NCBI GenBank assembly: GCA_041671125.1 | Contig: JBAZCA010000001.1 | Location: 8,120 to 72,119 of the forward strand | Direction of reading: 5' to 3' | Origin: Patescibacteria group bacterium | GTDB lineage: Bacteria > Patescibacteriota > Patescibacteriia > Patescibacteriales > JBAZCA01 | DNA: 64,000 nucleotides | In this document: piece by piece, positions 9,547 to 61,203 of the stretch | Layout of the letters: each line of letters opens with the position of its first letter | Position numbering within the stretch: the stretch's first letter is position 1 | Position numbers and translations under genes: made by a program | Notes under the pieces: generated by a model | Databases searched by the model: none | The model's input: the letters and a program-made list of their open reading frames with translations, nothing else | What the model was told of the DNA's origin: nothing

Positions 9547-9595
9547 CATAACGCGTAACAAGAGAAAAAAATCGTTACGAGTTACGAGTTATGAG
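9547..9595. repeat. Heptamer-unit imperfect inverted repeat upstream of prfA
   Basis: cataacgcgtaac (9547-9559) faces cgttacgagttacgagttatgag (9573-9595). The right arm is GTTACGA, GTTACGA, GTTATGA in tandem. Confidence 0.7.
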
Positions 9596-11020: not shown

Positions 11021-11995
11021 ATGAAAAGCCAAAAAAAAATTCAAAGGACAAAGATTCCTCCCTTTGAACATGAGCTTATATTAGCACACATTCTTAATAA
11101 ATCAAGAGAGTGGGTTTTAACGCATCCTGAAGTTAAACTTACCAGAAGCCAGGCAAGAAGCTATAGGTTATATGTCGCGAGGAGACAAAAAGGCGAACCG
11201 CTCGCTTATATCCTCGGCCATAAGGGTTTTTACGGCCTGGACTTCATAGTCAATAAAAACGTCCTGGTTCCCCGCCCGGAAACCGAATTAATAATAGATT
11301 ACGTAACACATAACATAAAACACGAAACATCAGACAATATAGTTATTATTGACATAGGCACAGGCTCAGGATGCATCATCATCACCCTGGCTAAATTATT
11401 AAATCGCAAATCGCAAATCGCACCCGCCCGAACGCTTCAGGCGGGCGGGAATCGCAAATTCATTGCCACCGACATCTCTAAACCGGCTTTATTCGTCGCC
11501 CGCAAAAACGCCAAACAGCACGGCGTTGATAAGCAAATAAAATTTCTTCACGGCAATCTGCTAGAACCCGCATTATCCGAAATTAAAAAAAATAAATTGG
11601 AAATTGGAAATTGGAAATTGGAAATTCTCTGCAATCTTCCCTACCTAACTCCAGCGCAAATAAAAAATTCCCCTTCAATAAAACATGAACCGAGGTTGGC
11701 ATTAGCGGCGGGTCGTGACGGCCTTAAATATTACCGAGAGCTGTTTAAACAGATTAAATCGTTACGCGTTACGCGTTACGCGTTACGCGTATTATGTGAA
11801 ATAGATCCGAGGCAAAAACAGAAAATAACAGCTCTCGCGAAAAAATTCTTTCCCCGCTCCCGTCTCCAAATAAAAAAAGACCTCCGGGGTCATAGCAGGC
11901 TGTTAGTTATTAACTTATCACCAGATAACAATGTAGATTGTAGATTGGTAATTAAATCAGTCGTACCCCTGGACAGTATAGCCGTACGGCGCTAA
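11021..11995 (+). CDS. prmC: Release factor glutamine N5-methyltransferase (HemK/PrmC) carrying several in-frame heptamer-repeat insertions
   Basis: RRQKGEPLAYILGHKGFYGLDFIVNKNVLVPRPETELI, IIDIGTGSGCI, CNLPYL (NPPY-type motif IV), HEPRLALAAGRDGLKYYRE and DLRGHSRLLV are all present. The start is taken at ATG 11021 (MKSQKK); the upstream 48 codons of ORF 10877 overlap the opposite-strand ORF and look non-coding. The C-terminal ~25 aa probably run through a repeat and are extended. Confidence 0.85.
   Translation: MKSQKKIQRTKIPPFEHELILAHILNKSREWVLTHPEVKLTRSQARSYRLYVARRQKGEPLAYILGHKGFYGLDFIVNKNVLVPRPETELIIDYVTHNIKHETSDNIVIIDIGTGSGCIIITLAKLLNRKSQIAPARTLQAGGNRKFIATDISKPALFVARKNAKQHGVDKQIKFLHGNLLEPALSEIKKNKLEIGNWKLEILCNLPYLTPAQIKNSPSIKHEPRLALAAGRDGLKYYRELFKQIKSLRVTRYALRVLCEIDPRQKQKITALAKKFFPRSRLQIKKDLRGHSRLLVINLSPDNNVDCRLVIKSVVPLDSIAVRR
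11401..11461. repeat. Intragenic element: (AAATCGC)x3, a GC hairpin, then AATCGCAAATT
   Basis: The sequence is aaatcgcaaatcgcaaatcgca + cccgcccg aacgcttcagg cgggcggg + aatcgcaaatt. It is ~60 nt, in-frame within prmC, and encodes NRKSQIAPARTLQAGGNRKF. Confidence 0.8.
11594..11626. repeat. (AAATTGG) x ~4.7 tandem array inside prmC
   Basis: aaattggaaattggaaattggaaattggaaatt encodes KLEIGNWKLEI directly N-terminal to the catalytic NLPY motif. Confidence 0.9.
11761..11788. repeat. (GTTACGC) x4 tandem array inside prmC
   Basis: gttacgcgttacgcgttacgcgttacgc encodes (S)LRVTRYALRV. A further (TGTAGAT)x2 array lies at 11932-11952. Confidence 0.9.
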
Positions 11996-12467: not shown

Positions 12468-12527
12468 AGTAAATAGTAAATAGACAAAAGTAAATAGAAT
12501 TTTTCTGTTGTCTATTTACTATTTACT
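12468..12527. repeat. Perfect 20-bp inverted repeat built of AGTAAAT units
   Basis: agtaaatagtaaatagacaa (12468-12487) pairs with ttgtctatttactatttact (12508-12527) across a 20-nt loop. It lies between GT4 gene 12565..13728 and the pilin-like gene. Confidence 0.9.
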
Positions 12528-12564
12528 ATTGTCTCCTGTCCAAATTTAATTATAACACATTTCG

Positions 12565-14728: not shown

Positions 14729-14789
14729 AATTCATAATTCATAATTCATAATTCATAATTCATAATTCATAATTCATAATTCATAATTC
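14729..14789. repeat. (AATTCAT) x ~8.7 tandem array in the clpB 5' leader
   Basis: Eight perfect 7-nt units plus a partial unit lie between CIRCE and the clpB ATG (14812). Confidence 0.95.
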
Positions 14790-14811
14790 TCTATTCTTAA
14801 TTCTATTATTT

Positions 14812-25420: not shown

Positions 25421-25428
25421 GTTATTAG

Positions 25429-25499
25429 AATTAAAAATTACGAATTACAAATTAAGATTTTATTACGACTCTTAATTTTTAATTCTTAATTTTTAATTT
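25429..25499. repeat. AATTNNN-unit inverted repeat between the aminotransferase and FemAB genes
   Basis: aattaaaaattacgaattacaaattaag faces cttaatttttaattcttaatttttaattta. The arms are AT-rich and complementary, with AATT recurring every 7 nt. Confidence 0.8.
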
Positions 25500-26567: not shown

Positions 26568-26628
26568 ATAAGTAAGAAGTTAGAAGTTAGAAATTAGAAA
26601 TTTTTTCTTCTTACTTCTGACTTCTTAT
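26568..26628. repeat. AGAAGTN-unit hairpin overlapping the 3' end of the DegT-like gene
   Basis: aagtaagaag (26570-26579) pairs perfectly with cttcttactt (26607-16), flanked by agaagtt/agaaatt units. The last codons of ORF 26594..27871 (..KKSEVRRKNF*) are encoded by the right arm. Confidence 0.75.
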
Positions 26629-28847: not shown

Positions 28848-28903
28848 ATTGACTTTTTGGAAATCATTTTCGTTAGAACAATGCTAAAGCCCGAGACTTA
28901 AAT

Positions 28904-28952
28904 AATTCATAATTCATAATTCATAATTCATAATTCATAATTCATAATTCAT
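28904..28952. repeat. (AATTCAT) x7 tandem array, same unit and strand as the clpB-leader array
   Basis: Seven perfect units. The array overlaps the stop codon region of ORF 28935..30800, whose C-terminus ..LELMNYEL* is repeat-encoded. Confidence 0.95.
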
Positions 28953-30800
28953 CAATTCCAACTTATACAAAGTAAAATCATCGGTAATCATCTTTACTTT
29001 TTCCATCCTCAGATTTACTTTTCCCAAAGGGCCGCGATTAAGATGGTTGACCGTCGCTTCGGAATAGGTAAAATTATAATAATACATGGGCAAACGTTCG
29101 GCGACGCGGGCGTATGCGGCGATCATACGCGGATCATCAAACAACCCGACAATGACTTTTCGTTCGGGAAAAAATATCTTGTCATGATAGCGGGTCAATA
29201 TTACCGCGTTTTCTTCGGTAAGACTGAGAACTTTTTCATACTCCAGCCGGGCGGCGACACCTCTGTGATAAGAGATTACCAACCCCTCTTCCGAGCCGAA
29301 AAGCGTAAAATTAACACTCACGTAAAACAGCCCTAAAACCGCCAGCCCCAGGAGAAAACCTTGAAATGTTTTTACCAGAAACCGCGCGTCTTTTGAAAAA
29401 GATTTAAAAATGTTAATTCTTCCCAGACAATCCGTCAACAGTGTCGGCAGGCCAATGACTTTAAAAATAAGGTAGGAAACGAAAGGAATAGCGCCGAGGT
29501 AAACCGGCAGCCAGTAGCGGGTGTAGGAATTGCCAATGGTCGCGGCCGATTTATCCGGATTGTCATAAAACTCCCAACTGCCGTAATATAAAACCAATAT
29601 GGCCGAGAAAAAAAGCCAGGTAAGAATATAGACAAAATGCTTTTTCTTTAGTTTCTTAAAATGCAGGATAAAAAGCGCGAGGCCAAAAAATGCCGGCCAA
29701 AAAATCCAGTAAAACATTTTTATGAAATAAAGCTGGAAAATTTTTATGGACCTCGGAACGTTAATCCCAAAACTAAAAATTGCTTTTTCAATTCCTATTG
29801 CCAATTCCTTAATCCGGCCTATTCCCCCGCTCGCGAGGCCAGGAATGGATTTCATAAGATCCTTGCCGCCTCCGGCGACAGTAGCGATTGATTCGTTCAT
29901 GGCCGGATAGCCGCCGATCGTCGGCGAACCGTAAAGGATGCTGTTCCAATAAAATACCGGCAGTAAGGCCAAGGCGAAAAAAGATATAAAAATAACCAGC
30001 CGCGCCAGGCCGAAACGCCAAAAATTTAAAGCCCAGGCGATGAATAACGCCGGACCGAGCCATAAAAGCTCCGAAGACCGGACGGCTGAAGCGAGGCCGA
30101 TAAACAGCCCGCCCAAAGCGGCAAAAACCATTCCCCGCGCCTTTGGCCAAATCTTTTTCTTATTTTCCGGCTCTTTGCCATTCACCCTATCAGTAATTTC
30201 CGATCCAACATCTTCACTTCCTTCATGTTCTATTACGTCCTTCGTATTTTTTTCTTTAAGCAAAGAGGCTGAAATTAAAGTATAATATAATCCAACAATC
30301 AGAAACACTGTAAAAAGCACATTATGAAACATACTCCGGGCGCTGTAATAAAAATACACCGGAAAAACAGAAAGGATAAACGCCGAAAACAGGGCAACCC
30401 GCCGGGAAAAAAATATTCTCATTAACAGGTAGTAATAAACAATACCGACAGCCGCGAAAAACGGGGTAAGATAGCCGATAATTTTCCCGGTTGTAAAGGA
30501 GCCGATTATGCCGTAAACTAAAGGCAGACCGAGAAAACTAACCGGTTTCAGCTCGCCCGAGTCGCTTCGGAAGCTCCGCGGATGGATGATTTCTCCGGCT
30601 CCGGGGTTGTATTTTTCAAAAACCGACAACTCTCCTTCCCTGGCGTAAAGGCCGGAAAAAAAATAATTGGCGGTTTCATCCGGCGACCCCCATTTTAAAA
30701 ATCCCCCTTTCTGGGAGAGGTAAATATAAGCGCCGGCGGAAAGAAAAAAACCGACTGCCAAAGTAAAAAGTATTATTCCAATACCAATCTTATATTTCAT
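28935..30800 (-). CDS. Polytopic membrane protein, GT-C-fold (ArnT/PMT-like) glycosyltransferase candidate
   Basis: 621 aa with many hydrophobic helices. An acidic motif lies in the first loop (WGSPDETANYFF), and there is a C-terminal soluble domain. Confidence 0.5.
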   Translation of the reverse strand: MKYKIGIGIILFTLAVGFFLSAGAYIYLSQKGGFLKWGSPDETANYFFSGLYAREGELSVFEKYNPGAGEIIHPRSFRSDSGELKPVSFLGLPLVYGIIGSFTTGKIIGYLTPFFAAVGIVYYYLLMRIFFSRRVALFSAFILSVFPVYFYYSARSMFHNVLFTVFLIVGLYYTLISASLLKEKNTKDVIEHEGSEDVGSEITDRVNGKEPENKKKIWPKARGMVFAALGGLFIGLASAVRSSELLWLGPALFIAWALNFWRFGLARLVIFISFFALALLPVFYWNSILYGSPTIGGYPAMNESIATVAGGGKDLMKSIPGLASGGIGRIKELAIGIEKAIFSFGINVPRSIKIFQLYFIKMFYWIFWPAFFGLALFILHFKKLKKKHFVYILTWLFFSAILVLYYGSWEFYDNPDKSAATIGNSYTRYWLPVYLGAIPFVSYLIFKVIGLPTLLTDCLGRINIFKSFSKDARFLVKTFQGFLLGLAVLGLFYVSVNFTLFGSEEGLVISYHRGVAARLEYEKVLSLTEENAVILTRYHDKIFFPERKVIVGLFDDPRMIAAYARVAERLPMYYYNFTYSEATVNHLNRGPLGKVNLRMEKVKMITDDFTLYKLELMNYEL

Positions 30801-30902: not shown

Positions 30903-32924
30903 ATGCCTTTTATCGTTGCCTTGCCGATTCTCGCCATCATCTCCCTTGCTTCGCTTTTTGGCGGCCTGGTTTACTATTTTTACAGCCTGAACACGGCCGG
31001 AATAGCCCTTGCGGCCGTCCTAACAGCCTTTTCCGGCTGGAAACTGGTTAACCGCCTGATTAAAAACAATAAAAATCATGCTCCGAAAAATTTTTCAGCC
31101 ATAATTTCTAATGGCCATGAAGCCGCCAGCCGGAAAAAAATAAGCTGGATAGGATGTCTTAAAATCATTATCCCGTCGGCGCTTTACGCGGTTTTTTTCG
31201 GACTGGCAATTTTTACTCTTTTCACCAATCAAACCGACCGGGCCATAATCTCACCCTGGCAGGCGGCGCCAGCTTATTTTCTTGTTTACTATTTCTTAGC
31301 TACTTTGCTAATATTGCTTTTTATTGTCAAATCTAAAAAATTAAGAATTACAAATTACGAATTACAAATTTTTATTTTACTTCACTATTTACTATCTTTT
31401 TCCGTTGCTCTCGTAATTTATAAAATCGGTTACGGGTTTGATCCCTTTATCCATGGGGCGGCGCTGAAAGTAATTGACGCCAAAGGAATAATCGCGCCGA
31501 AAACTTTTTACTACTCGGGCTTTTACGGGCTGATAATCATTTTACACAAACTGCTATTCATCCCGATTAGCTGGATTAATAAATTATTAGTCCCGATTCT
31601 TTCGGCTCTAATACTGCCGCCGGTTTTAATAAACTCTTTTAAGAAAACCGGACACGCTAGCCCCCTCTTATCAGCCGTCCTTCTTCTTGCCATGCCTTTT
31701 TCTTTTCTGATCCTTACCACCCCCCAAAACCTGGCTTTTCTTTTTGCGCTGATAATAATTCTTTTCAGTTTAACGGCAAAAAATATCCTGGAGCATCTAA
31801 CGCTTCTGCTTTTCTCTTCCGCCGCTTTCATGATCCATCCCCTGGCCGGCATACCTTTGATCTTTTTTTCTTTAATCCGTTTTGTTAATTTTTTCGCCCA
31901 AGGAGGATTATCGGCCGACAAAAAATTAGCAAAATTTATCCCGTACAAAAAATATCTCAACTTTATTTTTTATTTCCTTTCGGCCGCGGCTCTTCCCCTG
32001 GCTTTTTACGTTTTTGAAAAAGGCCTAAGCGCTCCGGATACTGCCCCGCCCCGGGGAATAAAAACAATTTTAAGCGTTCTGGCAAAAAGCCTGAAAATTA
32101 GTTTCCCGAACCAGGAAAATATATTCCTTAACTTTTCTTATTTTATCGCCCAAAACGGATTAAAAATTTTTCTTATCCTCGCCGCCGCCGGGATTATTTA
32201 TGCTATCGCCAGGAGCCGGTTTCGGGAACTAAGAGATTATTTTTTTATGTCCGCTGGCCTTATTTTTTCTTATTTCCTGACCGAGGCGCTCTCTTTCAGC
32301 TTCTTAATAGATTACGAACGCTCGGCTTACTCGGAAAGGATTTTATTTTTATCCATGATGTTTTTAATGCCGTTCATTTTTTTACTGATAAAATGGTATC
32401 TTTCGCGGCTTGCGCTTTCCCGCGGACTCGCGTTTTACTCCGGTCTGGTATTTTCAGCCGCGCTCATAACCGCCTCACTCTATAATTCTTACCCGCGCTA
32501 CGACGCCTACTTTAATTCCCGCGGCTATTCAACCGGAAAATACGACCTCGCGGCCGTCCACTGGATTGAAGAAGACGCCAAGGGTAAATTTATCGTGCTC
32601 GCCAACCAGCAGGTCTCGGCCGGCGCGCTCCGCGAATTCGGTTTTAGTCATTATTACCAGGCTAAAAGCGGAGAAGAAATTTTTAATTACCCCATCCCGA
32701 CCGGCGGGAAATTATACCAGTATTATTTAAGCATGGTTTACGATAAGCCAACGCGCGTCCGGATGTCTAAAGCCATGAACCTGGCCGACGTTCAAACCGG
32801 CTATTTTGTTTTAAACAAATACTGGAATAACTTCCCTAAAGTGCTTGACGAAGCTAAGCTCTCAGCCGATTCATGGCAGAGTTTTGGGGAGGGAGAGGTG
32901 TGGGTGTTTAAATATAAAAAATAA
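30903..32924 (+). CDS. Large polytopic membrane protein of unknown function with a C-terminal soluble domain
   Basis: 673 aa with more than 12 hydrophobic segments. It is divergent from the GT-C-like gene and contains an in-frame AATTNNN array. Confidence 0.55.
   Translation: MPFIVALPILAIISLASLFGGLVYYFYSLNTAGIALAAVLTAFSGWKLVNRLIKNNKNHAPKNFSAIISNGHEAASRKKISWIGCLKIIIPSALYAVFFGLAIFTLFTNQTDRAIISPWQAAPAYFLVYYFLATLLILLFIVKSKKLRITNYELQIFILLHYLLSFSVALVIYKIGYGFDPFIHGAALKVIDAKGIIAPKTFYYSGFYGLIIILHKLLFIPISWINKLLVPILSALILPPVLINSFKKTGHASPLLSAVLLLAMPFSFLILTTPQNLAFLFALIIILFSLTAKNILEHLTLLLFSSAAFMIHPLAGIPLIFFSLIRFVNFFAQGGLSADKKLAKFIPYKKYLNFIFYFLSAAALPLAFYVFEKGLSAPDTAPPRGIKTILSVLAKSLKISFPNQENIFLNFSYFIAQNGLKIFLILAAAGIIYAIARSRFRELRDYFFMSAGLIFSYFLTEALSFSFLIDYERSAYSERILFLSMMFLMPFIFLLIKWYLSRLALSRGLAFYSGLVFSAALITASLYNSYPRYDAYFNSRGYSTGKYDLAAVHWIEEDAKGKFIVLANQQVSAGALREFGFSHYYQAKSGEEIFNYPIPTGGKLYQYYLSMVYDKPTRVRMSKAMNLADVQTGYFVLNKYWNNFPKVLDEAKLSADSWQSFGEGEVWVFKYKK
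31339..31373. repeat. AATTNNN x5 array inside the membrane-protein CDS
   Basis: aattaag aattaca aattacg aattaca aattttt encodes KLRITNYELQIF. Confidence 0.85.
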
Positions 32925-39010: not shown

Positions 39011-39037
39011 AAAAATCCCGAATTGTTCGGGATTTTT
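39011..39037. terminator. Terminator after rpsI (bidirectional shape)
   Basis: aaaaatcccgaa ttg ttcgggattttt forms an 8-bp stem. The T-run on the minus strand is followed by gctttt. Confidence 0.7.
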
Positions 39038-39054: not shown

Positions 39055-39510
39055 TTAACGTTTACTCCACTGCGGAGCCCGTCTGGCTTTTTTCAAGCCC
39101 GGTTTTTTCCGCTCCACTTCCCTCGCGTCGCGGGTTAAGTAGCCTTTGGCTTTTAACGCCGGCCGGAGCTCCGGGTCAAATTTAATCAAAGCCCGGGAAA
39201 TTCCGAGGCGAACCGCTTCGGACTGGCCGGATTTTCCTCCGCCAGACGTTAAAATTGAAAAGTCAAAATCTTTGTTTCTGCCAGTCAATTTTAAGGGCTG
39301 GTTAACGGTCATCATAAGTCCGGCCGGAAAATAATCGGTCGCTTTCATCCCGTTGACCATGATAATGCCTTTGCCTTTTTCATAAAGCCGGGTCTGGGCG
39401 ATGGCTCTTTTCCGTCTGCCGATCGCGGCGATATAACGACCCTTGAAAATGTCGTTTTTAACTTTTTCCTCGGCCGCGACGATTTTAGTTGTAGCTTTTG
39501 TTTCTGCCAT
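39055..39510 (-). CDS. rpsI: 30S ribosomal protein S9
   Basis: GRRKRAIAQTRL..GKGIIMVNG..GGGKSGQSEAVRLGISRAL..LTRDAREVERKKPGLKKARRAPQWSKR. The start is at ATG 39510; the TTG at 39528 lies in the repeat. Confidence 0.93.
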   Translation of the reverse strand: MAETKATTKIVAAEEKVKNDIFKGRYIAAIGRRKRAIAQTRLYEKGKGIIMVNGMKATDYFPAGLMMTVNQPLKLTGRNKDFDFSILTSGGGKSGQSEAVRLGISRALIKFDPELRPALKAKGYLTRDAREVERKKPGLKKARRAPQWSKR

Positions 39511-39528
39511 AATATATTTAATCTTCAA

Positions 39529-39601
39529 TCATTCAATCTACAATCAATAAATTAAGAATTGAAATCGCGGATTGAAGATTAAATGATTACAGATTGATAA
39601 T
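39529..39601. repeat. Heptamer-unit imperfect inverted repeat in the rplM-rpsI gap
   Basis: aatcttcaatcattcaatctacaatcaat faces attgaagattaaatgattacagattgataat. Confidence 0.75.
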
Positions 39602-39958
39602 TTATTTCACTATCAGTCTTTTCATCATCCCGTTCCGGAGCCGGTTAGGGGGAAGCATTTCCCGCACCGCCCGGATTAAAATATCAGCCGGTTTTTTCTG
39701 CATCATGTCCTTCATTTTTACGGTTTTCAGGCCGCCCGGATAACCAGAATAACGGAAATATTTTTTCTGTTCCAGTTTTTTTCCGGTAAATTTCAGTTTG
39801 GCAATATTACTCACTTCAACAATATCCCCGGAATCAATGTTTGGGGTGTATTCAGGCTTGTTTTTACCGCGCAAAACCAGGGCAATCTGGGTCGCCAGCC
39901 GGCCGACGGACTTTTCGGCGGCGTCAATTTTAATATGTTTTCTTTCTATTTTAATCAT
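39602..39958 (-). CDS. rplM: 50S ribosomal protein L13
   Basis: GRLATQIALVLRGKNKPEYTPNIDSGD..VEVSNIAK..YFRYSGYPGGLK..AVREMLP. Confidence 0.92.
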   Translation of the reverse strand: MIKIERKHIKIDAAEKSVGRLATQIALVLRGKNKPEYTPNIDSGDIVEVSNIAKLKFTGKKLEQKKYFRYSGYPGGLKTVKMKDMMQKKPADILIRAVREMLPPNRLRNGMMKRLIVK

Positions 39959-39988
39959 ATCGTTTTAAAATCACCTCTATCAAATACT

Positions 39989-40339
39989 CTATACCAGCTC
40001 TATCCGCACAATTTCCGCCCCGTCGCCCTGGCGCTCCCCAAGCTTAACGATCCGGGAATAACCGCCTTTCAGGCCGGCGTAACGGCCACCAATAACTTCA
40101 ACCAGTTTTTTTGCCGCCATCTTCTGGGGCAAAATTGACATAATGCGTTTTTTTGAAGCCAGGTCGTTCTTCTTGGCGTAAGTAATCACCCTTTCTAAAA
40201 GCGACCGGACGGCTTTGGCTTTGGCTTTGGTGGTTTTTACTTTTTCATAAATCAAAATACTTGAAGCCAAATTCCGAAGCATGAGCTCTCTTGGTGCCTT
40301 TTTTCTGTCCAGTATTTTGTTTTTGTTCCTGTGTCTCAT
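39989..40339 (-). CDS. rplQ: 50S ribosomal protein L17
   Basis: MRHRNKNKILDRKKAPRELMLRNLASSILIYEKVKTTKAKAKAVRSLLERVIT..GGYSRIVKLGERQGDGAEIVRIELV. The start is at ATG 40339. Confidence 0.92.
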   Translation of the reverse strand: MRHRNKNKILDRKKAPRELMLRNLASSILIYEKVKTTKAKAKAVRSLLERVITYAKKNDLASKKRIMSILPQKMAAKKLVEVIGGRYAGLKGGYSRIVKLGERQGDGAEIVRIELV

Positions 40340-40393
40340 ATTTAACTCAATTTTCAATTATTCATTAATTGATCATTGAAGATTGATAATTGA

Positions 40394-41212
40394 TTAATTT
40401 TTCTTCGGCCTTCCCCTTTTCTTCGATGATTCCTTAGCTTCCATTTCAACCGGGGCTTCTGATTCTTCTCCGCCGACTTCTTTTTCTGAAACGCCTTCAG
40501 TTTCCCCGATTTCGGCTATCACCGCTTCTTTGCCGATTAAAGCGTTAAATTGTTCGATTAATATTTTGGCTGATTGGGAAAAAGCTTCTTCCGGCTCTAT
40601 CGTTCCGTCGGTTTTTATGTCCAGTTTTAATTTTTCCCAGTTAGTCATCTTTCCGACGCGGATACTTTCAATGTCAATTCCGACCTTAACCACCGGAGTG
40701 AAAATTGAATCAATTTCAATGTAGCCAATTTCGGAATTTTTATTTTCTCTCACTTCAACCGGTTCATAGCCTTTGCCCTGGGCGACGTGGATTTCCATTT
40801 CCAGATTGCCGGCCATATCGGTAATATTGGCGATAACCATTTCCGGATTCATTATTTCAACCTGGCTGGATTTCGTTATGTCGCCGGCTTTGACTTTTTT
40901 CTCCCCGTGGACAGCGAGCTCAAGCTTAACCGGTTCTTCGGAAAATACCTTTAACCTTAATTTTTTTAAATTCAGGATGATTTCCAAGACATCCTCTTTA
41001 ACGTGCGGAAGCGGCATGAATTCGTGATCCGCCCCTTTTATTTTTACCCCGACAACAGCCGCGCCCGGCAAGCTGGAAAGAAGCACCCGGCGAAGCGAAT
41101 TGCCGATAGTAATTCCGAATCCCGGATAGCAAGGATAAATTGACGCCAATGATTCATGGGCTTCGGCGCCTTTGATAAATTTCACATTCTGGGGTAAAGC
41201 AATGGTTTCCAT
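40394..41212 (-). CDS. rpoA: DNA-directed RNA polymerase alpha subunit: NTD only, with a C-terminal acidic linker plus AT-hook instead of the alpha-CTD
   Basis: The NTD is present (GFGITIGNSLRRVLLSSLPGAAVVGVKI..VEH EF pattern, here GADHEF). The protein is only 272 aa and ends ..EAVIAEIGETEGVSEKEVGGEESEAPVEMEAKESSKKRGRPKKN*. No LELSVRS/helix-hairpin-helix CTD sequence is present, and rplQ follows after 54 nt. Confidence 0.9.
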   Translation of the reverse strand: METIALPQNVKFIKGAEAHESLASIYPCYPGFGITIGNSLRRVLLSSLPGAAVVGVKIKGADHEFMPLPHVKEDVLEIILNLKKLRLKVFSEEPVKLELAVHGEKKVKAGDITKSSQVEIMNPEMVIANITDMAGNLEMEIHVAQGKGYEPVEVRENKNSEIGYIEIDSIFTPVVKVGIDIESIRVGKMTNWEKLKLDIKTDGTIEPEEAFSQSAKILIEQFNALIGKEAVIAEIGETEGVSEKEVGGEESEAPVEMEAKESSKKRGRPKKN

Positions 41213-41301
41213 AGATATAAGTCCAAAAGTCCAAAGTCCAAAAGTCTAATATAATTCACCTGACTTTCTGACTTTATGACTATCTGACTGATTGGCTTAT
41301 G
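41213..41301. repeat. AGTCCAA / TGACTNT periodic complementary repeats in the rpoA-rpsD gap
   Basis: agtccaaaagtccaaagtccaaaagtc is followed by cctgactttctgactttatgactatctgactg. AGTC and GACT recur with a 7-8 nt period on opposite arms. Confidence 0.75.
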
Positions 41302-41934
41302 CTATCTTGAATAAAATTCTACTATCATGGCAGTGTTGATGTTGGCCGGGATATCATCGTCGGACGGAGCAGACACAATTTTAGCTTCAAGAGATTTCCG
41401 GTCAACATTAAGCCAACTCGGCTTATTCCCTTCGTCTTTCTTTTCCAAAAGCTCGCGAAAATATTTTTGGCGTCTGGAAGATTCTTTTACTTTAACCACA
41501 TCGCCGGATTTAAGATTGAACGAAGCGATGTTGACTTCTTTCCCGTTAACAATAAAATGACCGTGATTTACCAGCTGGCGAGACAAATCTCTTGAGGGCG
41601 CGAACCCCATCCGATAAACCGCATTATCCAGCCGGGTTTCAAGTAATTTGATGAAATTTTTTCCCTTATCGCCTTTTTCTTTTTCAGCTTTTTCAAAAGT
41701 AAGGACAAACTGCTTTTCCAGCAAATGATAAGTCTTTCTGGCTTTCTGTTTTTCTTTAAGTTGTATTCCGTATTCGCTTATCCTTGGCGGCCGGCCTTTC
41801 GCGCTATGGGGTCCAGGAGGAAAATTCCTCTTTACGATACCGCAACGCGGCGTACTGCAACGTTCGCCTTTTAAAAACAATTTTTCGCCGGCTCTCCGGC
41901 ATTGCTTGCATTTTGGATCTAAGTTTCTTGCCAT
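41302..41934 (-). CDS. rpsD: 30S ribosomal protein S4
   Basis: MARNLDPKCKQCRRAGEKLFLKGERC..YGIQLKEKQKARKTY..RLDNAVYRMGFAPSRDLSRQLVNHGHFIVNGKEVNIASF. Confidence 0.93.
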   Translation of the reverse strand: MARNLDPKCKQCRRAGEKLFLKGERCSTPRCGIVKRNFPPGPHSAKGRPPRISEYGIQLKEKQKARKTYHLLEKQFVLTFEKAEKEKGDKGKNFIKLLETRLDNAVYRMGFAPSRDLSRQLVNHGHFIVNGKEVNIASFNLKSGDVVKVKESSRRQKYFRELLEKKDEGNKPSWLNVDRKSLEAKIVSAPSDDDIPANINTAMIVEFYSR

Positions 41935-42016
41935 AGTTATTCAATCTTCAATTAATTCTGTTCATCTCCAATAGTTCTATTAATATGTTTTTTATGTTTT
42001 TTCGGATTATTGTAGA

Positions 42017-42610
42017 TTATACTCTTCTCGGTTTTTTCGGACGACAACCGTTGTGCGGTATCGGGGTAATATCTTTTATTGAAGTTATTAATAACCCGTT
42101 GGCGTTCAAAGCGCGAACTGCGGCGTCGCGACCGATTCCCACTCCCCGGACAAACACGCTCACTTCTTTCAAGCCACAATCCTCTTTCGCTTTTGTGCAG
42201 GCGATGCGGGTGATGATCTGCGCCGCGTAAGGAGTAGCCTTTTTCGGCCCCTTAAACCCGGCTATTCCGGCTGAAGCCCAGGAAATTACGTTACCCCCCA
42301 AATCAGTCAAAGTTACAATCGTGTTATTGTAGGTGGATTTTATAAATACTTTGCCCGTCGGCACTCTCCGGTCTTTTTTCTTGCCTTTCTTTTTCTTTGA
42401 ACGGCTAGGACCTTTTTCTTTCCTTTTTTCCAATTTTTCTTTCACGCTGTCGGGCAGTTCAACAAGACCGCTTACGGGGCGGCGGCTCTCTTTTTCTTCT
42501 TCCGGATCAGACAAAAAAGACGCGGCACCGTTTGCCGTCGCGGCAACCGCATCGGCAGATGTTTCTTCGGTCTTTTTATTGTCAGTTTTTATGTTTTTTT
42601 CTTCAGTCAT
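42017..42610 (-). CDS. rpsK: 30S ribosomal protein S11 with a ~70-aa N-terminal extension
   Basis: The core is [80 protein letters not shown]. It is preceded by an acidic then poly-Lys extension (..[14 protein letters not shown]). Confidence 0.9.
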
Positions 42611-42703
42611 ATTTCATTCTCATAACCCGTAACTCATAACCCATAACTCGTTAGCATTTTACAAAAATTTGCGTTACGGGTTATGTATTGCGGGTTTTGG
42701 GTC
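42611..42703. repeat. CATAACC/CGTAACT-unit inverted repeat in the rpsM-rpsK gap
   Basis: cataacccgtaac (left) pairs with gttacgggttatg (right) in a perfect 13-bp match. The left arm continues as tandem cataacc cgtaact cataacc cataact. Confidence 0.85.
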
Positions 42704-43096
42704 TTATGTTTTTTGTCCGGCCGGTTTTCTTCCTGAACCCATGGTCTTCCTTACGTTGCCGCGAACTGTTCGGGTATTAGTCTTCGTATGCTGACCCCTT
42801 GATGGCAACCCTTTGATATGACGGATGCCCCGATAGCTACTTATTTCTTTAAGCCTTTTGATATTACTCATAATATCCCGCCTCAACTCTCCTTCAACTT
42901 TGTTGTCCTTTTCAACAATTTCGCGGATCCGATTGGCGTCTTCTTCGCTTACGTCTTTAACTCTGGTGTTATAATTTATTTTGGCCGTGGCTAAAATATT
43001 GATGGATTTTTTATTTCCAATACCAAAAATATAGGTCAAAGCGACTTCTATTCTTTTGTCGTTGGGGAGCGTAACTCCCGCTATTCTTAATGCCAT
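42704..43096 (-). CDS. rpsM: 30S ribosomal protein S13
   Basis: MALRIAGVTLPNDKRIEVALTYIFGIG..YRGIRHIKGLPSRGQHTKTNTRT. Confidence 0.93.
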   Translation of the reverse strand: MALRIAGVTLPNDKRIEVALTYIFGIGNKKSINILATAKINYNTRVKDVSEEDANRIREIVEKDNKVEGELRRDIMSNIKRLKEISSYRGIRHIKGLPSRGQHTKTNTRTVRGNVRKTMGSGRKPAGQKT

Positions 43097-43214
43097 ATGT
43101 ATTTTAGTCTGATAGTCTAAGTAGTCCGAAGTCTGGAAGTCTCTGAGTCCGCTGGTTCAAAATCTGAAAAATATGACTTTTGACTTCATGACTCATGGAC
43201 TTAATTAACTTGCT
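43097..43214. repeat. AGTCNNN / NNNGACT periodic complementary repeats in the rpmJ-rpsM gap
   Basis: agtctgatagtctaagtagtccgaagtctggaagtctctgagtc faces atgacttttgacttcatgactcatggact. Confidence 0.75.
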
Positions 43215-43328
43215 TTATCCTTGCCTTTGTTTATGTTTCGGATTTTTGCAGGTTACCCAAAGTCGGCCTTTGCGCCGAACGATCTTGCAATCCTTACATA
43301 CTATTTTTACCGATGACCTCACTTTCAT
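43215..43328 (-). CDS. rpmJ: 50S ribosomal protein L36 (not in the ORF track because it is under 60 aa)
   Basis: The reverse-complement translation is [37 protein letters not shown] (37 aa), sitting in the canonical position between infA and rpsM. Confidence 0.9.
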
Positions 43329-43421
43329 ATATTTTAACTCCGCTTTTGCAAAACGGTTTTGGGGATTTTTCTAAATATCTTACTTACAGATTTTTTAAAA
43401 CCTAATCCAGCCTCAGCTCCG

Positions 43422-43658: not shown

Positions 43659-43675
43659 TAATGCTAGGGAAACGC

Positions 43676-43707
43676 AAAAATTCTGTCCCGATCACGCGGG
43701 ACAAAAT
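43676..43707 (-). terminator. Hairpin plus T-run between the infA promoter and the infA ATG (attenuator, or alaS terminator)
   Basis: The minus strand reads tgtcccg cgtgat cgggaca gaattttt, with the stem at 43684-43690/43697-43703. It lies downstream of the consensus promoter at 43744-43772. Confidence 0.5.
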
Positions 43708-43743: not shown

Positions 43744-43772
43744 ATTATATAGAAAAACTTAAAACCTGTCAA
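43744..43772 (-). promoter_or_regulatory. Perfect consensus sigma70 promoter for the infA-rpmJ-rpsM... operon
   Basis: The minus strand reads TTGACA (43772-43767), a 17-nt spacer (ggttttaagtttttcta), then TATAAT (43749-43744). Confidence 0.7.
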
Positions 43773-43786
43773 CACCTTTACTCTGG

Positions 43787-48726: not shown

Positions 48727-48754
48727 AATAAATAAAAGTTAAGTTGTGAATTAC

Positions 48755-48859
48755 CAATGATCAATGATCAATTTTCAATGAATTTTCAATGATTCAATGA
48801 TAAAATTTTCAAACGTTTGGAAATTGAAAATTGATTAATTGAAAATTCATTGATCATTG
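48755..48859. repeat. About 105-nt imperfect palindrome of CAATGAT/AATTTTC units in the ftsI-murF gap
   Basis: caatgatcaatga (48755-48767) pairs perfectly with tcattgatcattg (48847-48859). Internally, aattttcaat pairs with attgaaaatt. The centre is aaacgttt. Confidence 0.85.
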
Positions 48860-48879
48860 TAAATTGATAATTGATAATT

Positions 48880-51338: not shown

Positions 51339-51358
51339 AAAATAAAAATTTCCAATTT

Positions 51359-52318
51359 TTAATTTTTAATTTTTAATTTTTCCGCCGCTCTTAGCTTAGC
51401 GCTTCGGGCGCGCGGATTATTTTTAATCTCTTCGTTCGACGGGACAATGACTTTTTTAGTAAGTATTTTTAAATCGGCTTTTTCGTTATCCTCTTTTTCG
51501 CCGTATTTTGACCGTTTTGAAACCTTTCCCGCGTTTTCCTTAAAAAACCTTTTTACTATCCGGTCTTCAAGGCTATGGTAGGAAATAACCACCAGCCTGC
51601 CGCCTTCCTTTAAAAGCGAAATTGCCTCGGGCAGGGCTTCGCTTAAAGCCCCCAGTTCATCATTTGTCGCGATGCGCAAAGCCTGAAAAGTTTTTGTCGC
51701 CGGATGAATTTTTCCTCTCCGGTAAAAGGCCGGCACTGCCGCGTTTATTATCTCAACCAATGCGCCGACGGTTTTTATTTTTTCTTTTTTTCTTTTCTCA
51801 GTAATCTTTTCGACAATCCGCCAGGCAAACCTTTCTTCGCCATATTCTTTAAATATCCGCGCCAGCTCATCCTTTGGCCGACTGTTGACTATGTTCTCCG
51901 CTGTCTCAAGCGTTTTGCCAAAAGCCATGTCTAGTCCAGCTTCAGCCATTTTAAAAGAAAAACCTCCGGTTTCACGCGCGAGCTGAGCGCTTGATAGACC
52001 AAGATCAAATACAATGCCGTCAAACTTAACGCCTGGCTCAGGGAAATTCTTTTTAATAATAATCGGTAAATTCCTGAAATTCGCATGAGATAAGAATGAA
52101 TTTTTAATTTTTAATTTTTCAATTTTTAATTTGGCGTTCTCTATGGCCAGCTCATCAGCGTCAATGGCCAGAACTTTTCCTTTTTCGCCAACCTTATCCG
52201 CGATAGCCCCCGTATATCCTCCTCCCCCCAAAGTGCAATCAATATAGTAACCGCCTTTTTTTATATTCAGGTATTCCAGCGCTTCGCTTAACATTACCGG
52301 CGTGTGATGATATTCCAT
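51359..52318 (-). CDS. rsmH: 16S rRNA (cytosine1402-N4)-methyltransferase RsmH/MraW
   Basis: HTPVMLSEALEYL..YIDCTLGGGGY..DLGLSSAQL..GFSF..LDMA..SYHSLEDRIVKRFF. It contains an in-frame AATTTTT array (52099-52134, LKIEKLKIKN) and a repeat-encoded C-terminus (KLKIKN*). Confidence 0.92.
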   Translation of the reverse strand: MEYHHTPVMLSEALEYLNIKKGGYYIDCTLGGGGYTGAIADKVGEKGKVLAIDADELAIENAKLKIEKLKIKNSFLSHANFRNLPIIIKKNFPEPGVKFDGIVFDLGLSSAQLARETGGFSFKMAEAGLDMAFGKTLETAENIVNSRPKDELARIFKEYGEERFAWRIVEKITEKRKKEKIKTVGALVEIINAAVPAFYRRGKIHPATKTFQALRIATNDELGALSEALPEAISLLKEGGRLVVISYHSLEDRIVKRFFKENAGKVSKRSKYGEKEDNEKADLKILTKKVIVPSNEEIKNNPRARSAKLRAAEKLKIKN

Positions 52319-52382
52319 TTAATTTTTAATTTTTAATTTTGTAATTTTTAAAAATTCAAAAATTATAAAATTAAAAATTCTC
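52319..52382. repeat. AATTTTT/AAAAATT-unit inverted repeat in the mraZ-rsmH gap
   Basis: aatttttaatttttaattttgtaattttt faces aaaaattcaaaaattataaaattaaaaatt. Confidence 0.85.
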
Positions 52383-53146: not shown

Positions 53147-53151
53147 TAGCG

Positions 53152-53205
53152 CGTAACATAGAACATGAAACAAAATTTGTTATGCGTTTCATGTTATGTG
53201 TTACG
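53152..53205. repeat. GTTAYGT-family 20-bp inverted repeat overlapping the tsaB stop codon
   Basis: cgtaacatagaacatgaaac (53152-53171) pairs with gtttcatgttatgtgttacg (53186-53205), with 1 mismatch and 1 G:T pair. Confidence 0.8.
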
Positions 53206-53697
53206 TATCGTAATATTAGGTTCTTTATCATATTCTGGAGCAACAATATCAAAGTCAAATTTGGAATTTAGAATTTGCTTGCCCCTCGGAGCCTTGGCGA
53301 AGTGGGGGAATTTGGAATTTTTGCTTCCCGTCAGAACATTAATCATGCCATCTTCACTTATCCCCACGACAGGCACATTCAAAGCATATCCCAAAGCGTT
53401 CGCGGTCGCCACCCCAATCCGGAGCGAAGTAAATGTCCCGCCGCGATTTACGACTTCAATCATGGTTATAAAGCCGTAATTCTTAATTCTTAATTCATAA
53501 TTCTTCTTCTTTTTCGCGATTTCCGTTATTTTGCGCTTATAACTGTTTAAAACAGAATCAATGAGCGGTAACAACTTCTCCGCCTGCTGATATCGCGCTT
53601 TAATTATTTTTTTTACAATCACCTTCCCTACCGCGTCCAACAAAGCCGCTTCAATTTCGGTGGAATTATTTTTAATGGTGTTGATGCGGAGGATCAT
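53194..53697 (-). CDS. tsaB: tRNA threonylcarbamoyladenosine biosynthesis protein TsaB-like (short, N-terminal domain only)
   Basis: It begins MILRINT, contains QQAEKLLPLIDSVL, and has GGTFTSLRIGVATANALGYALNVPVVGIS (compare GPGSFTGLRIG..A.gLa..l.iP..gvs). An in-frame AATTCTT/AATTCAT array at 53478-53505 encodes KNYELRIKNYG. Confidence 0.7.
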   Translation of the reverse strand: MILRINTIKNNSTEIEAALLDAVGKVIVKKIIKARYQQAEKLLPLIDSVLNSYKRKITEIAKKKKNYELRIKNYGFITMIEVVNRGGTFTSLRIGVATANALGYALNVPVVGISEDGMINVLTGSKNSKFPHFAKAPRGKQILNSKFDFDIVAPEYDKEPNITIRNT

Positions 53698-57820: not shown

Positions 57821-59056
57821 TTAACTATTCATTAAGCCGGAATAAACAGCTGAAATTTCACTCATATAGTTCTCCGCGTTCATGCCTTTCACGGTCTTCG
57901 CGGCGTTAGTCTCTATTTTTAAATTTTCGCCAGCGTCCAATTCAGTAAGCTTGGCGGCCAGATCATCCGCGCTACCGGTTTTAAACAAAAGGCCGTTCTG
58001 GCCGTGTTTTATAATTTCGGCTATTCCGCCGATATTGGAAGCAATAACTATTTTTCCGGCCGCTAAGGACTCAAGCAGGGCAAACGGCATGTTCTCCGGC
58101 CAAAGAGACGGAATGATTACGGCCTTAGCGCCAATGATTAATCGCTTTAATTCATCGCCATATTTCGGACCAAGCAGTTCCGCGCTGTCATTTAATTCTA
58201 AATTCTTAATTCTTAATTCTAAATTCTCTTTATCCGGCCCGCTTCCGGCGATTTTTAACTTTAAATTCAGGCCTCTTGTTTTAGCAATTACTAAAGCTTC
58301 CATAAGCGTGTCAATTCCCTTTTCTTTTGAGAGCCGTCCAAAATACAAGAGGTAATCTTTTTTTTCATTTCCCGCGGGCGCTTTCCAGCTTTCCTGATTA
58401 ACAAAATTGTTTATGACTTTTACTTTTTCTTCTTTAATCCCCGATGAAACAATTATATTTTTTATAAACCGGCTCGGAGCTATGAAAAGATCAATTTTAG
58501 AATAGGATTTTAATACGTGGCGTTGAAAATACGCCTCAAACGCCGCCAAAAAACTTTTTACGTAAGAATTTTTTACGCATTTGCCAAAAAAACAATTATA
58601 ATATTTTCCGCCGACGCATTTATCGCAATACTTATTTTTATTAAACAGCTTGTAGTTCGGGCAGGTGAGCTTATAGTCATGCAAAGTCATCACCGTAGGG
58701 ATCCCCCGCTTTTTTAATTCATGGATTATTGACGGGCTTAAGTGATGATAAATATTATGGAGATGGGCGATGTCGGGATTAAATTCTTTTAACAGCTCTT
58801 TTAATTTTTTCCGCGCCTGACAATTATAGAAAATATTTAAAGCCGCGCTGATTTTGCCGGCCGGAGCCAGCCGACCGTCAGTCTCAGAGTCTTTCGCGAA
58901 AAACCGGGACCAGCCGGAAAATATGTTTCTCGCACTAAACATGGAAAAATACGCGACTTCATGGCCATTTTTTTCAAGAATTTTTCCGGTATCAAGGTAA
59001 GACCTTTCCGCGCCGCCCCTTAAATAATGATAATTGTTTATTAAAAGAATTTTCAT
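57821..59056 (-). CDS. Glycosyltransferase family 4
   Basis: MKILLINNYHYLRGGAERSY and the C-terminal PSLWPENMPFALLESLAAGKIVIASNIGGIAEII. An in-frame AATTCTN array at 58194-58230 encodes LELRIKNLELN. Confidence 0.85.
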   Translation of the reverse strand: MKILLINNYHYLRGGAERSYLDTGKILEKNGHEVAYFSMFSARNIFSGWSRFFAKDSETDGRLAPAGKISAALNIFYNCQARKKLKELLKEFNPDIAHLHNIYHHLSPSIIHELKKRGIPTVMTLHDYKLTCPNYKLFNKNKYCDKCVGGKYYNCFFGKCVKNSYVKSFLAAFEAYFQRHVLKSYSKIDLFIAPSRFIKNIIVSSGIKEEKVKVINNFVNQESWKAPAGNEKKDYLLYFGRLSKEKGIDTLMEALVIAKTRGLNLKLKIAGSGPDKENLELRIKNLELNDSAELLGPKYGDELKRLIIGAKAVIIPSLWPENMPFALLESLAAGKIVIASNIGGIAEIIKHGQNGLLFKTGSADDLAAKLTELDAGENLKIETNAAKTVKGMNAENYMSEISAVYSGLMNS

Positions 59057-60164: not shown

Positions 60165-60196
60165 TTCTTACCAGATATGGTTATTAACCAGACCCT

Positions 60197-60224
60197 GTTA
60201 TGTGTTATGTATTATGTGTTATGT
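60197..60224. repeat. (GTTATGT) x4 array overlapping the 3' end of radical SAM gene 2
   Basis: gttatgt gttatgt attatgt gttatgt encodes the C-terminal ..HITHNT* on the minus strand. Confidence 0.85.
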
Positions 60225-61203
60225 GTTTTATTTTTTCTTTCGCAATCCACATCCCCGCCCGGAACCAATGTTTCTTAATCGCCGGTTTGGCAGTACAGAC
60301 CATCCAGCAGGGCGTCGGGCATTTTTTAACTTTCATCCGAATTTTCTTTGCTTTTTCTCCTTCCCATATTTCCTGAAAACTTTGTCCGCTTAAATTGCCG
60401 GCCTTATCGCTTAAAATATTGCAGGGATAAATATTTCCTTCCGGATCCATGAAAAACGAGCCGCAAAGCGCGTCGCAAGGGAGAAGCGCCCGGCCGATAT
60501 TGACATAATAGACCATGCCGCGCATGTAATAGCATTTTCCCAATTCGGCCGGTTTGAATGATTTTATTTTCCGGCTTATTTCTCCTTTGAGCTGCTTCTC
60601 GATTTCGGCTTTTTCCGTTCCCTGATTGCTGTCGGTGGAAAAATAATTATCGCTGTTATGAGCGACGGTAATGCCTAGGTTCACGCCTTCCGCGCGACAG
60701 AATTCCGCTACTTTCTCGTATTGGCTTTCATTACCGGCCATGAATGTGAACCCGGCGCCGATATTTTTAAAACCGATCTTTTTTAAGCGCGACACGGTGT
60801 CTTTAACCATGCCGAAAGCGCCAGGTATTCCTCTTATTTCATCATGAATTTTCCCGATCCCGTCAATGGATACGGCAATGGTTACACGATCAGAATAATT
60901 TTTCTTCAAAATCTCTTTGGTGATTCTTTCAATCAAATCCGAAAGATAACCGTTAGTGGAAATAACCACGCGGCTCGGTTTTACTTCCCTAAAAATCACG
61001 TCTAAAATTTTCAGGATATCATTCCTTAAAAATGGCTCACCGCCGGTAATATTAATATCATCAAGGCTTTTTGGCAGTCGTCCGTAAACTTCCGGACTAA
61101 GCTCTTTACCGGGCGTCATCTTCCAGATATTACACATCCTGCAGCGGGAATTGCATTTATAGGTTATGGCAATTACCGCTGATTTAGGATCATTTAAAAA
61201 CAT
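60205..61203 (-). CDS. Radical SAM / SPASM-domain protein (2 of 3)
   Basis: ITYKCNSRCRMCNIW, ITGGEPFL, and the C-terminal CDALCGSFFMDPEGNIYPC..KKCPTPCWMVC. Confidence 0.85.
   Translation of the reverse strand: MFLNDPKSAVIAITYKCNSRCRMCNIWKMTPGKELSPEVYGRLPKSLDDINITGGEPFLRNDILKILDVIFREVKPSRVVISTNGYLSDLIERITKEILKKNYSDRVTIAVSIDGIGKIHDEIRGIPGAFGMVKDTVSRLKKIGFKNIGAGFTFMAGNESQYEKVAEFCRAEGVNLGITVAHNSDNYFSTDSNQGTEKAEIEKQLKGEISRKIKSFKPAELGKCYYMRGMVYYVNIGRALLPCDALCGSFFMDPEGNIYPCNILSDKAGNLSGQSFQEIWEGEKAKKIRMKVKKCPTPCWMVCTAKPAIKKHWFRAGMWIAKEKIKHITHNT

Follow-up and report, generated by a model that had tools for sequence, protein, structure and literature searches.

Heptanucleotide Repeats Arranged as Inverted Pairs in the Intercistronic Gaps of a Patescibacterial Genome

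In a stretch of 64,000 nucleotides (nt) from a Patescibacteria group bacterium (NCBI GenBank assembly GCA_041671125.1, contig JBAZCA010000001.1, positions 8,120 to 72,119; referred to as the window in the following), 14 hairpins were identified in gaps between co-directional genes, their arms being composed of tandem 7-nt units. These structures probably represent heptanucleotide simple sequence repeats (SSRs) of the slippage type, i.e., a known repeat class, occurring here as inverted pairs which form dispensable stem-loops between cistrons. In appearance they correspond to a paired and rapidly evolving version of the known heptamer excess, and not to a new dedicated regulatory element. In the literature searched, no description was found for this lineage and configuration; the heptamer excess itself has been described before.

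The Patescibacteria, or Candidate Phyla Radiation (CPR), comprise a large share of bacterial diversity and are represented by uncultivated organisms featuring genomes of approximately 1 Mb with few recognisable regulators. Searches with RpoA and S4 placed the window within the Patescibacteria near “Ca. Falkowbacteria”, the nearest genome being JBAZUL01 (locus L001, identical to L069; RpoA identity of 82%). The genes of the window are mostly encoded on the minus strand, and its G+C content amounts to approximately 42–45%.

Periodicity and Architecture of the Hairpins

Periodicity statistics were computed for 44 gaps (6.8 kb) in comparison with dinucleotide-shuffled sequences. Arrays were detected by means of Tandem Repeats Finder (TRF), arms were identified by an inverted-repeat search, and the 14 hairpin regions were folded with RNAfold together with 200 dinucleotide shuffles each. 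Sequence identity at lag 7 reached 0.345 in the gaps and 0.287 after shuffling (z = 12.2), which substantiates the period-7 enrichment proposed in the initial annotation of this DNA. Lag 14 (z = 7.3) represents the harmonic and lag 8 (z = 5.5) spill-over, all remaining lags being at or below z = 3.2. Likewise, eight perfect tandem arrays of at least three copies had a period of 7, with at most one for each other period between 5 and 15 and approximately none expected.

All 13 loci for which heptamer-armed hairpins had been claimed could be verified by TRF, RNAfold and inspection of the printed gaps, including the perfect 20-bp stem at position 12468. The minimum free energy (MFE) z-scores of the 14 regions ranged from −1.5 to −8.5, the weakest value being obtained for the rplQ/rpoA gap. 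The hairpins of the window are as follows:

9547..9595 (+): heptamer-armed hairpin, CATAACG.../CGTTACGAG...; z −3.6; ends 6 nt before the prfA start
12468..12530 (−): hairpin with perfect 20-bp stem, AGTAAAT/ATTTACT units; z −8.5 (folded as 12466–12532); creates a spurious TTG extension, the true ATG lying 4 nt past the stem
25424..25499 (−): hairpin of AATTNNN units; 12-, 6- and 9-bp helices parted by 1x1 mismatches; z −7.4
26568..26628 (−): hairpin, AGAAGTN/NACTTCT units; z −4.9; overlaps the upstream gene's stop codon
37361..37439 (−): hairpin of AATTACG/CGTAATT units, causing a spurious TTG extension of the downstream open reading frame (ORF); z −4.3
39516..39597 (−): rplM→rpsI hairpin, AATCNNN/NNNGATT units, several registers possible; z −4.5; stem stops 5 nt short of the rpsI ATG (39512)
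40343..40399 (−): weak rpoA→rplQ hairpin, AATTGAT-type units; z −1.5; overlaps the stop codon of rpoA and stops 3 nt short of the rplQ ATG (40348)
41219..41289 (−): rpsD→rpoA hairpin, AGTCNNN(N)/GACTTT(T)N units, period 7–8; z −3.4
42619..42700 (−): rpsM→rpsK hairpin, CRTAACN/GTTAYGN units; z −5.7; its 5' arm (CRTAAC) prolongs the rpsM stop region ...AACATAA
43105..43205 (−): rpmJ→rpsM hairpin, units with AGTC/GACT core, period 7–8; z −2.9
48747..48879 (−): longest hairpin (approximately 130 nt), CAATGAT/ATTGAAAA-type units; z −6.4; starts 1 nt past the upstream stop codon
50953..51010 (−): hairpin, AAGTTAA/TTAACTT units; z −3.2; overlaps the stop codon of the preceding gene
52318..52380 (−): mraZ→rsmH hairpin, AATTTTT/AAAAATT units; z −4.3
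53150..53205 (−): hairpin of CRTAAC/GTTAYG-type units with the upstream stop codon inside the 5' arm; z −5.1

TRF reported arrays of period 7 (in some cases 8) at every hairpin locus, several of them mixing 7- and 8-nt units, and the inverted-repeat search revealed that the arms also pair in alternative registers offset by one or two units. Over 15 distinct units occur within the window. Provision of stop codons in all three frames was considered as a function of TAA-containing heptamers; however, each hairpin contains both orientations of its unit, and the AT-rich units hold stop codons by composition. The units are contiguous and lack spacers, in agreement with the previous exclusion of a CRISPR array.

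Two public assemblies matched the window with 100% identity, the hairpins being included in both cases, namely one from the European Nucleotide Archive (ENA) over 8.3 kb and a Logan assembly over 1.2 kb; moreover, the architecture was seen in dozens of independent metagenome-assembled genomes (MAGs). Therefore, the hairpins do not represent an assembly artefact, which the initial annotation had named as a possible refutation.

Placement Within Operons

Hairpins had initially been reported for almost every intergenic gap. This is an overstatement, as they were found in 14 of the 29 co-directional gaps of at least 36 nt and in none of the ten convergent or divergent gaps (Fisher p = 0.007). Within the window, the rpsK/rpsD and rplQ/rplM gaps are also devoid of hairpins. 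Read in sense orientation, the hairpins start 0–17 nt past the upstream stop codon and mostly end 3–11 nt before the next ATG. Among 49 starts in the window, a Shine-Dalgarno (SD)-like tetramer precedes only 7, and G is depleted between positions −10 and −1. Furthermore, T occupies position −1 at 31 of the 49 starts, and A is enriched at −6/−7 and −12/−13. These start contexts suggest SD-independent initiation.

The following promoter and terminator sequences frame the transcription units in question:

43744..43772 (−): sigma-70 consensus promoter with 12/12 matching positions, TTGACA-17-TATAAT (sequence match)
39011..39037: canonical GC-stem terminator with A/T runs on either side, after rpsI; contrast class to the heptamer hairpins
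17443–17472, 32953–32984 and 46237–46267: further canonical terminators at convergent gaps and operon ends

The promoter is predicted to start an infA-rpmJ-rpsM-rpsK-rpsD-rpoA-rplQ-rplM-rpsI transcription unit holding five of the hairpins. Approximately 35 nt after it, just upstream of infA, lies a terminator-like GC hairpin with a T-run (43679–43772 including the promoter, minus strand). Since the closest relative, L001, shares this arrangement (positions 3506–3629), the stretch may serve the infA-rpmJ-rpsM operon as its leader or attenuator.

The initial annotation had listed terminators among the possible roles of the heptamer hairpins. That they act as intrinsic terminators or attenuators between cistrons is extremely unlikely, even though they are stable stem-loops situated soon after stop codons. 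Their stems are AT-rich and periodically mismatched, no T-runs (U-tracts in the transcript) follow the 3' arms of any of the 14 hairpins, and a terminator scan of the window recovered none of them (0/14). By contrast, the genome employs GC-rich stems with T-runs at convergent gaps and operon ends, and the heptamer hairpins separate genes of one ribosomal operon that need to be co-expressed.

The hairpins may influence mRNA decay, processing or translational coupling, because they are located between a stop codon and the next start in a genome almost without SD sequences. Going further, they could primarily be selected RNA elements which set the relative expression of cistrons in SD-poor mRNAs, the 7-nt repeats merely serving as raw material. 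Blocking of 3' exonucleases, RNase III sites, stalling of terminating ribosomes, or coupling of downstream initiation to upstream translation are conceivable routes. This explanation is possible, albeit unlikely. The confinement to co-directional gaps in units that are delimited by canonical terminators and by promoters of consensus sequence is in its favour, as are the regular spacing to stop and start codons and the scarcity of SD-like motifs; however, this geometry is partly trivial for hairpins filling short gaps. Arrays lacking a second arm, comparisons with relatives and strand-specific folding, as described below, also bear on this point.

Unpaired Arrays Between and Inside Genes

Two kinds of arrays had been missed in the initial annotation, namely single-arm arrays and arrays within coding sequences. 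Both were recorded by TRF and, where a protein end is given, by translation:

14729..14803: single-arm (AATTCAT)x8.7–10 lacking an inverted partner; located in a divergent gap, shortly before the gene that begins at 14812
28902..28958: single-arm AATTCAT array, encoding the ...MNYEL C-terminus of gene 28935–30800
51354..51381: single-arm (AATTTTT)x4 across the rsmH stop codon (C-terminus KLKIKN)
60196..60227: single-arm (TGTTATG)x4.6 across a stop codon (C-terminus HITHNT)
11401..11947 (+): four unpaired in-frame heptamer arrays in prmC/hemK (gene 11060–11995), i.e., AAATCGC (11401–22), AAATTGG (11594–626), CGTTACG (11760–90) and TGTAGAT (11932–47)
31338..31370 (+): in-frame coding array (AAATTAC)x4.7 without partner arm, ORF 30903–32924
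52099..52132 (−): in-frame coding array (AATTTTT)x4.7 inside rsmH (MraW family)
53477..53505 (−): in-frame coding array (TAATTCT)x4.1 inside a TsaB-like ORF
58194..58227 (−): in-frame coding array (AATTCTA)x4.9 inside a glycosyltransferase gene

An inverted partner is absent from all eight coding arrays but present for 20 of the 24 intergenic array rows (17 according to the ungapped test and three from RNAfold; Fisher p = 5e-5). The pairing of intergenic but not of coding arrays speaks in favour of a selected RNA element; on the other hand, the single-arm arrays occupy the same kinds of position as the hairpins. The first two prmC/hemK arrays represent insertions in the alignment with HemK of T. 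maritima. This gene also contains a degenerate CRTAAC-type stretch at 11300–11321, and a GC-rich hairpin, CCCGCCCGAACGCTTCAGGCGGGCGGG, adjoins its first array. Moreover, AATTNNN-type arrays in or at the ends of unrelated genes (28935–28958, 31338–31370, 52099–52132, 53477–53505 and 58194–58227) encode the recurring peptides NYEL, ELRIKN and KLKIKN.

The arrays have consequences for annotation. The initial annotation had pointed out spurious N-terminal extensions from TTG codons as well as C-termini encoded by repeats (NYEL, KLKIKN and HITHNT, each running into the stop codon), and both were confirmed. Gene calling in CPR genomes should thus reckon with false TTG/GTG starts, C-termini encoded by repeats, and in-frame peptide insertions.

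Occurrence and Turnover in Related Genomes

To follow the hairpins beyond the window, orthologous ribosomal junctions were extracted from 146 loci, 96 of which share at least 48% S4/RpoA identity with the window, the remaining 50 being more distant. One or more hairpin gaps showing a signal of period 7/8 were detected in 22 of the 96 related loci compared to 3 of the 50 more distant ones. The rpmJ→rpsM junction was occupied most often (16 of 65 related loci, compared to approximately 6% for other junctions), and its hairpin recurs across lineages of 50–60% S4 identity with wholly turned-over sequence. Many relatives feature gaps of only 10–30 nt at the same junctions. Locus L087 (Ga0123336_10016324; 52% S4 identity) has a G+C content of 61% and carries TGCGGAA, CTGATAC and AGGTATC arrays near its ribosomal genes (685–706, 3992–4021 and 4849–4924); therefore, the trait is not confined to AT-rich genomes.

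The period is constant and the unit is not, as stated in the initial annotation. Across the loci, 120 arrays represent 63 canonical heptamers, units containing AATT or TTAA being over-represented, and the units change between genomes (e.g., AGATAAC, AAAGTTT, GAAATTT, TTAACAG, TTGATTT, TCGTAAA and CTGATAC). This diversity bears on the possibility, raised initially, of periodic binding arrays contacted every 7 nt by a protein such as a cold-shock protein (Csp), an S1-type or other single-strand binder, or a nucleoid protein. A 4-nt core (AGTC, AATT, AATC or GTTA) does remain constant within an array beside three variable positions, AATT and TTAA cores are enriched among the units, and Csp and S1 have been proposed as binders of the TAACTGA repeats upstream of starts in Beggiatoaceae (PMC4679880). 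However, a single binder of defined sequence specificity is not compatible with 63 units which vary from gap to gap and among close relatives. The arrays are, in addition, mostly locked in duplex stems and are tolerated in coding sequence. Such a binding function is, accordingly, very unlikely.

Exact look-ups of RpsM and RpmJ led exclusively to the L001 genome or to contigs that do not differ from the window. L001, the closest different genome, is approximately 80% identical in coding DNA and its hairpins are entirely different. The rpsD-rpoA gap, for instance, holds an 89-nt hairpin sequence in the window and measures 17 nt without a hairpin in L001, and the AATCTTC/GAAGATT unit is located in the rplM-rpsI gap of the window but in the rpsM-rpsK gap of L001. 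Because L001 is already that divergent, stepwise evolution could be followed only in other clades. In the rpsM→rpsK gap, L007 contains one CGCATAACGA compared to (CGCATAA)x5 in L008. The rpoA→rplQ gap of L003 carries a 7-bp mini-palindrome, AAGTAT...ATACTT; L012, which is 93% identical to L003 in aligned DNA, has two to three extra units per arm, the first of them overlapping the rpoA stop codon. The 19-nt rpmJ→rpsM gap of L015 corresponds to the 3' end of an 86-nt hairpin gap in L014 and L039, and L032 and L033 (89% identical in aligned DNA) feature unrelated units in the same gap. Thus, close genomes, with 85–93% identity in aligned DNA, are distinguished by whole units or by the presence or absence of a hairpin, so that arrays arise from local sequence, expand, contract and are replaced faster than the coding sequences diverge. 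This variability among genomes of 80–93% identity (coding or aligned DNA), together with the many relatives featuring 10–30-nt gaps, argues against a selected RNA function, while the recurrence of the rpmJ→rpsM hairpin at 50–60% S4 identity despite sequence turnover argues for it.

Presence and absence at orthologous sites is also a feature of mobile elements. Miniature elements mobilised by a transposase or a RAYT-like enzyme (REP-associated tyrosine transposase), such as REPINs (hairpin-forming pairs of repetitive extragenic palindromic, REP, sequences), miniature inverted-repeat transposable elements (MITEs) or palindrome-associated transposable elements (PATEs), or else footprints of insertion and excision with a 7-bp target duplication, would agree with imperfect intergenic palindromes, with the AATCTTC/GAAGATT unit in different gaps of the window and L001, and with unit families found at several loci. 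Nonetheless, this origin is highly improbable. When 17 elements were compared with the window by blastn, matches were limited to arrays of 19–33 nt and one identical single-arm array of 51 nt; no two loci share the loop and both arms, which largely refutes the idea and upholds the earlier statement that the hairpins are not copies of one REP or MITE. No target-site duplication was evident from the filled (window rpsD-rpoA) and empty (L001) sites, and the growth of the arrays takes place in situ, with stop codons among the local sequences from which they start. The window showed no obvious transposase, its ORFs not having been scanned exhaustively.

Strand Symmetry and Pairing Pattern

Pairing at the mRNA level would favour the sense strand, because a G.U pair becomes C.A on the complement. 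No sense advantage was observed in the window, where the summed MFE values amounted to −289 kcal/mol (sense) and −318 kcal/mol (antisense). Across loci, the sense strand was more stable in 20 and the antisense strand in 18 of 38 hairpin gaps (Wilcoxon p = 0.95), the power of this comparison being limited for AT-rich stems. G.U pairs in these 38 gaps were not in excess either, accounting for 92 of 1161 sense and 91 of 1185 antisense pairs. Furthermore, Rfam 15, which includes ribosomal-protein leaders, yielded only tRNA-Ala for the whole window at the gathering threshold, and at E ≤ 1 one chance-level match to a long non-coding RNA for 39400–43800; none of the three sub-regions scanned at E ≤ 1 gave a relevant family. 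The missing strand advantage, the lack of G.U excess and the absence of an Rfam match for the hairpins weigh against primary selection as RNA elements.

The main interruption of the stems is the 1x1 mismatch (86 cases), and helices flanked by such a mismatch on both sides peak at 6–7 bp. Therefore, the arms are complementary in approximately six of seven positions, which is the pattern expected from separate amplification of a founder unit in each arm.

Proposed Origin of the Hairpins

Taken together, the results are best accommodated by slippage-type heptanucleotide SSRs. We infer a sequence-agnostic tandem duplication at the DNA level, of the slipped-strand type, which would generate and turn over the arrays and would be unusually active in a subset of the Patescibacteria. 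In short co-directional gaps, the arrays originate from local seeds, namely mini-palindromes of 6–7 bp or the stop-codon region of the upstream gene. Amplification of each arm in 7-nt steps would then produce AT-rich stems of approximately 6-bp helices with single mismatches and multiple registers. The rough match between the arms may be maintained by slippage within one of them, together with template switching or repair that spans the quasi-palindrome. In coding sequences, solely unpaired in-frame arrays survive. Each hairpin would be transcribed within a polycistronic mRNA and would individually be dispensable; on an evolutionary scale, it is short-lived.

Fold-back repeats of the triplet-repeat type are prone to expansion, and template switching is able to match the arms of imperfect palindromes. 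We know of no description of a 7-nt step or of a systematic intercistronic location for these processes, whose link to the heptamer hairpins would thus be by analogy.

Several observations do not fit easily into this picture. Mutation alone does not account for the regular pairing of intergenic arrays, for their restriction to co-directional gaps (14/29 compared to 0/10, p = 0.007), or for the preference for rpmJ→rpsM (16/65 compared to approximately 6%); the bias in pairing, orientation and junction hints at selection or position-specific tolerance. The AATTNNN and GTTAYG families are found at several loci, AATT and TTAA cores are enriched, and the array at 28902 shares 51 identical nucleotides of (AATTCAT)n with positions 14734–14784, 14 kb away. 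Therefore, the process is not fully sequence-blind. Nor does slippage by itself account for a step size of 7 nt.

A more far-reaching scenario is that Patescibacteria without SD-guided initiation maintain sequence-independent intercistronic hairpins, rebuilt by an active 7-nt duplication, which would place a stop codon close to the next start and set re-initiation, processing and stoichiometry. In this scenario, which we regard as rather improbable, the architecture would be selected and the sequence free, slippage providing heritable tuning; the duplications might be due to a dedicated enzyme introducing and filling in staggered nicks at AATT/TTAA-like cores, or to a property of the replisome.

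If the slippage-derived arrays are only mutational by-products, they chiefly call for care in annotation and add one observation on mutation bias. Many independent recent events with stepwise intermediates offer a system for dissecting the long-noted bacterial preference for 7-nt repeats. A pervasive class of such hairpins would also bear on the expression of operons lacking SD sequences and help to account for the position of the CPR in surveys of inverted repeats. In a recent survey, CPR phyla showed the highest density of perfect inverted repeats, the cause of which was not dissected there (PMC13155455).

Relation to Known Repeat Classes

In most genomes, long SSRs (LSSRs) are most often built from heptanucleotides, and polymerase slippage has been proposed as their origin (Mrazek et al. 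2007, cited after the summaries in PMC4679880 and PMC4692102). The initial remark that no element class with these properties had been described is therefore not tenable, since a heptanucleotide SSR excess in bacterial intergenic DNA is already published (PMC4679880, PMC4692102). Our literature searches yielded no description of paired heptamer hairpins in CPR/Patescibacteria, which is no proof of novelty.

The arrays resemble bacterial heptanucleotide LSSRs and the short tandemly repeated repetitive (STRR) sequences of cyanobacteria in their head-to-tail 7-nt units, in a period that is by far the commonest, in a mostly intergenic location, and in copy numbers varying among close relatives. 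Tandem 7-nt units occur beyond chance, and whole-unit changes in copy number between close relatives were seen for L007/L008, L003/L012 and L015 compared to L014/L039. In contrast to the known cases, intergenic arrays are mostly inverted pairs, the lineage is Patescibacteria, and a single genome may hold many different AT-rich units; one or few dominant units per genome, as in Xanthomonas, Beggiatoaceae and STRR1–3, were not observed.

In Xanthomonas (GGGAATC) and Nostoc (GGGGA(C/T)T), intergenic heptamers have been described, a few of them as inverted pairs (PMC4692102). They are comparable in occurring at the same gene pairs of related strains with variation in length and sequence, in forming some inverted stem-loop pairs, and in lying partly inside operons (pecE-pecF). 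However, each of these genomes uses one G-rich, quadruplex-prone unit and pairs are exceptional, whereas the units described here are AT-rich and diverse and pairing is the rule. Geobacter also harbours heptanucleotide elements, GGACCGG, within and between genes. The TAACTGA repeats of marine Beggiatoaceae, known also from some Cyanobacteria and Bacteroidetes, adjoin start codons, including those of ribosomal operons (PMC4679880). They share with the hairpins the position a few nucleotides upstream of starts, the association with ribosomal protein operons and the regions poor in ribosome-binding sites, but consist of a single unit, with 169 direct sets compared to one inverted set and no hairpin architecture (PMC4679880).

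Proteobacterial REP sequences, bacterial interspersed mosaic elements (BIMEs) and REPINs are likewise imperfect palindromes in intercistronic operon gaps, with strain-variable presence and a possible role as mRNA stabilisers. In E. coli, REP/BIME sequences stabilise mRNAs, and REP-induced ribosome stalling occurs near stop codons; both would be the nearest parallels to hairpins selected as RNA elements. REPs, however, occur as families whose copies are nearly identical and depend on a RAYT transposase, and they lack 7-nt periodicity, whereas no full-length copies were found here. An analogy with integron attC sites (7-bp core GTTRRRY, structure but not sequence being kept) was also considered and dropped; the neighbours of the hairpins are core housekeeping genes, and only one unit family shows a vague similarity to the attC core.

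Other Structures in the Window

Further repeats and folded stretches were recorded apart from the heptamer hairpins. Positions 54966–55213 comprise a near-perfect long hairpin of approximately 100 bp (mfe −118 kcal/mol) with a G+C content above that of its surroundings and no Rfam match at E ≤ 1; it could be a palindromic repeat element. A G+C-rich, strongly folded stretch of 365 nt (53698–54062; mfe −152 kcal/mol), overlapped only by weak GTG/TTG ORFs and without an Rfam match, is possibly an unrecognised structured RNA. On the plus strand, positions 74–8767 form a single ORF of 2897 amino acids. This giant ORF is followed by a G-rich non-coding stretch (8768–9022; GGGGAGGGGTTAGGGGTGGGG, several GC hairpins, mfe −133 kcal/mol), for which Rfam matches were at chance level only. 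Finally, a tandem repeat with a period of 39 nt (45936–46047; 2.9 copies, 69% matches) is located in ORF 45819–46217 and corresponds to a protein repeat of 13 residues.

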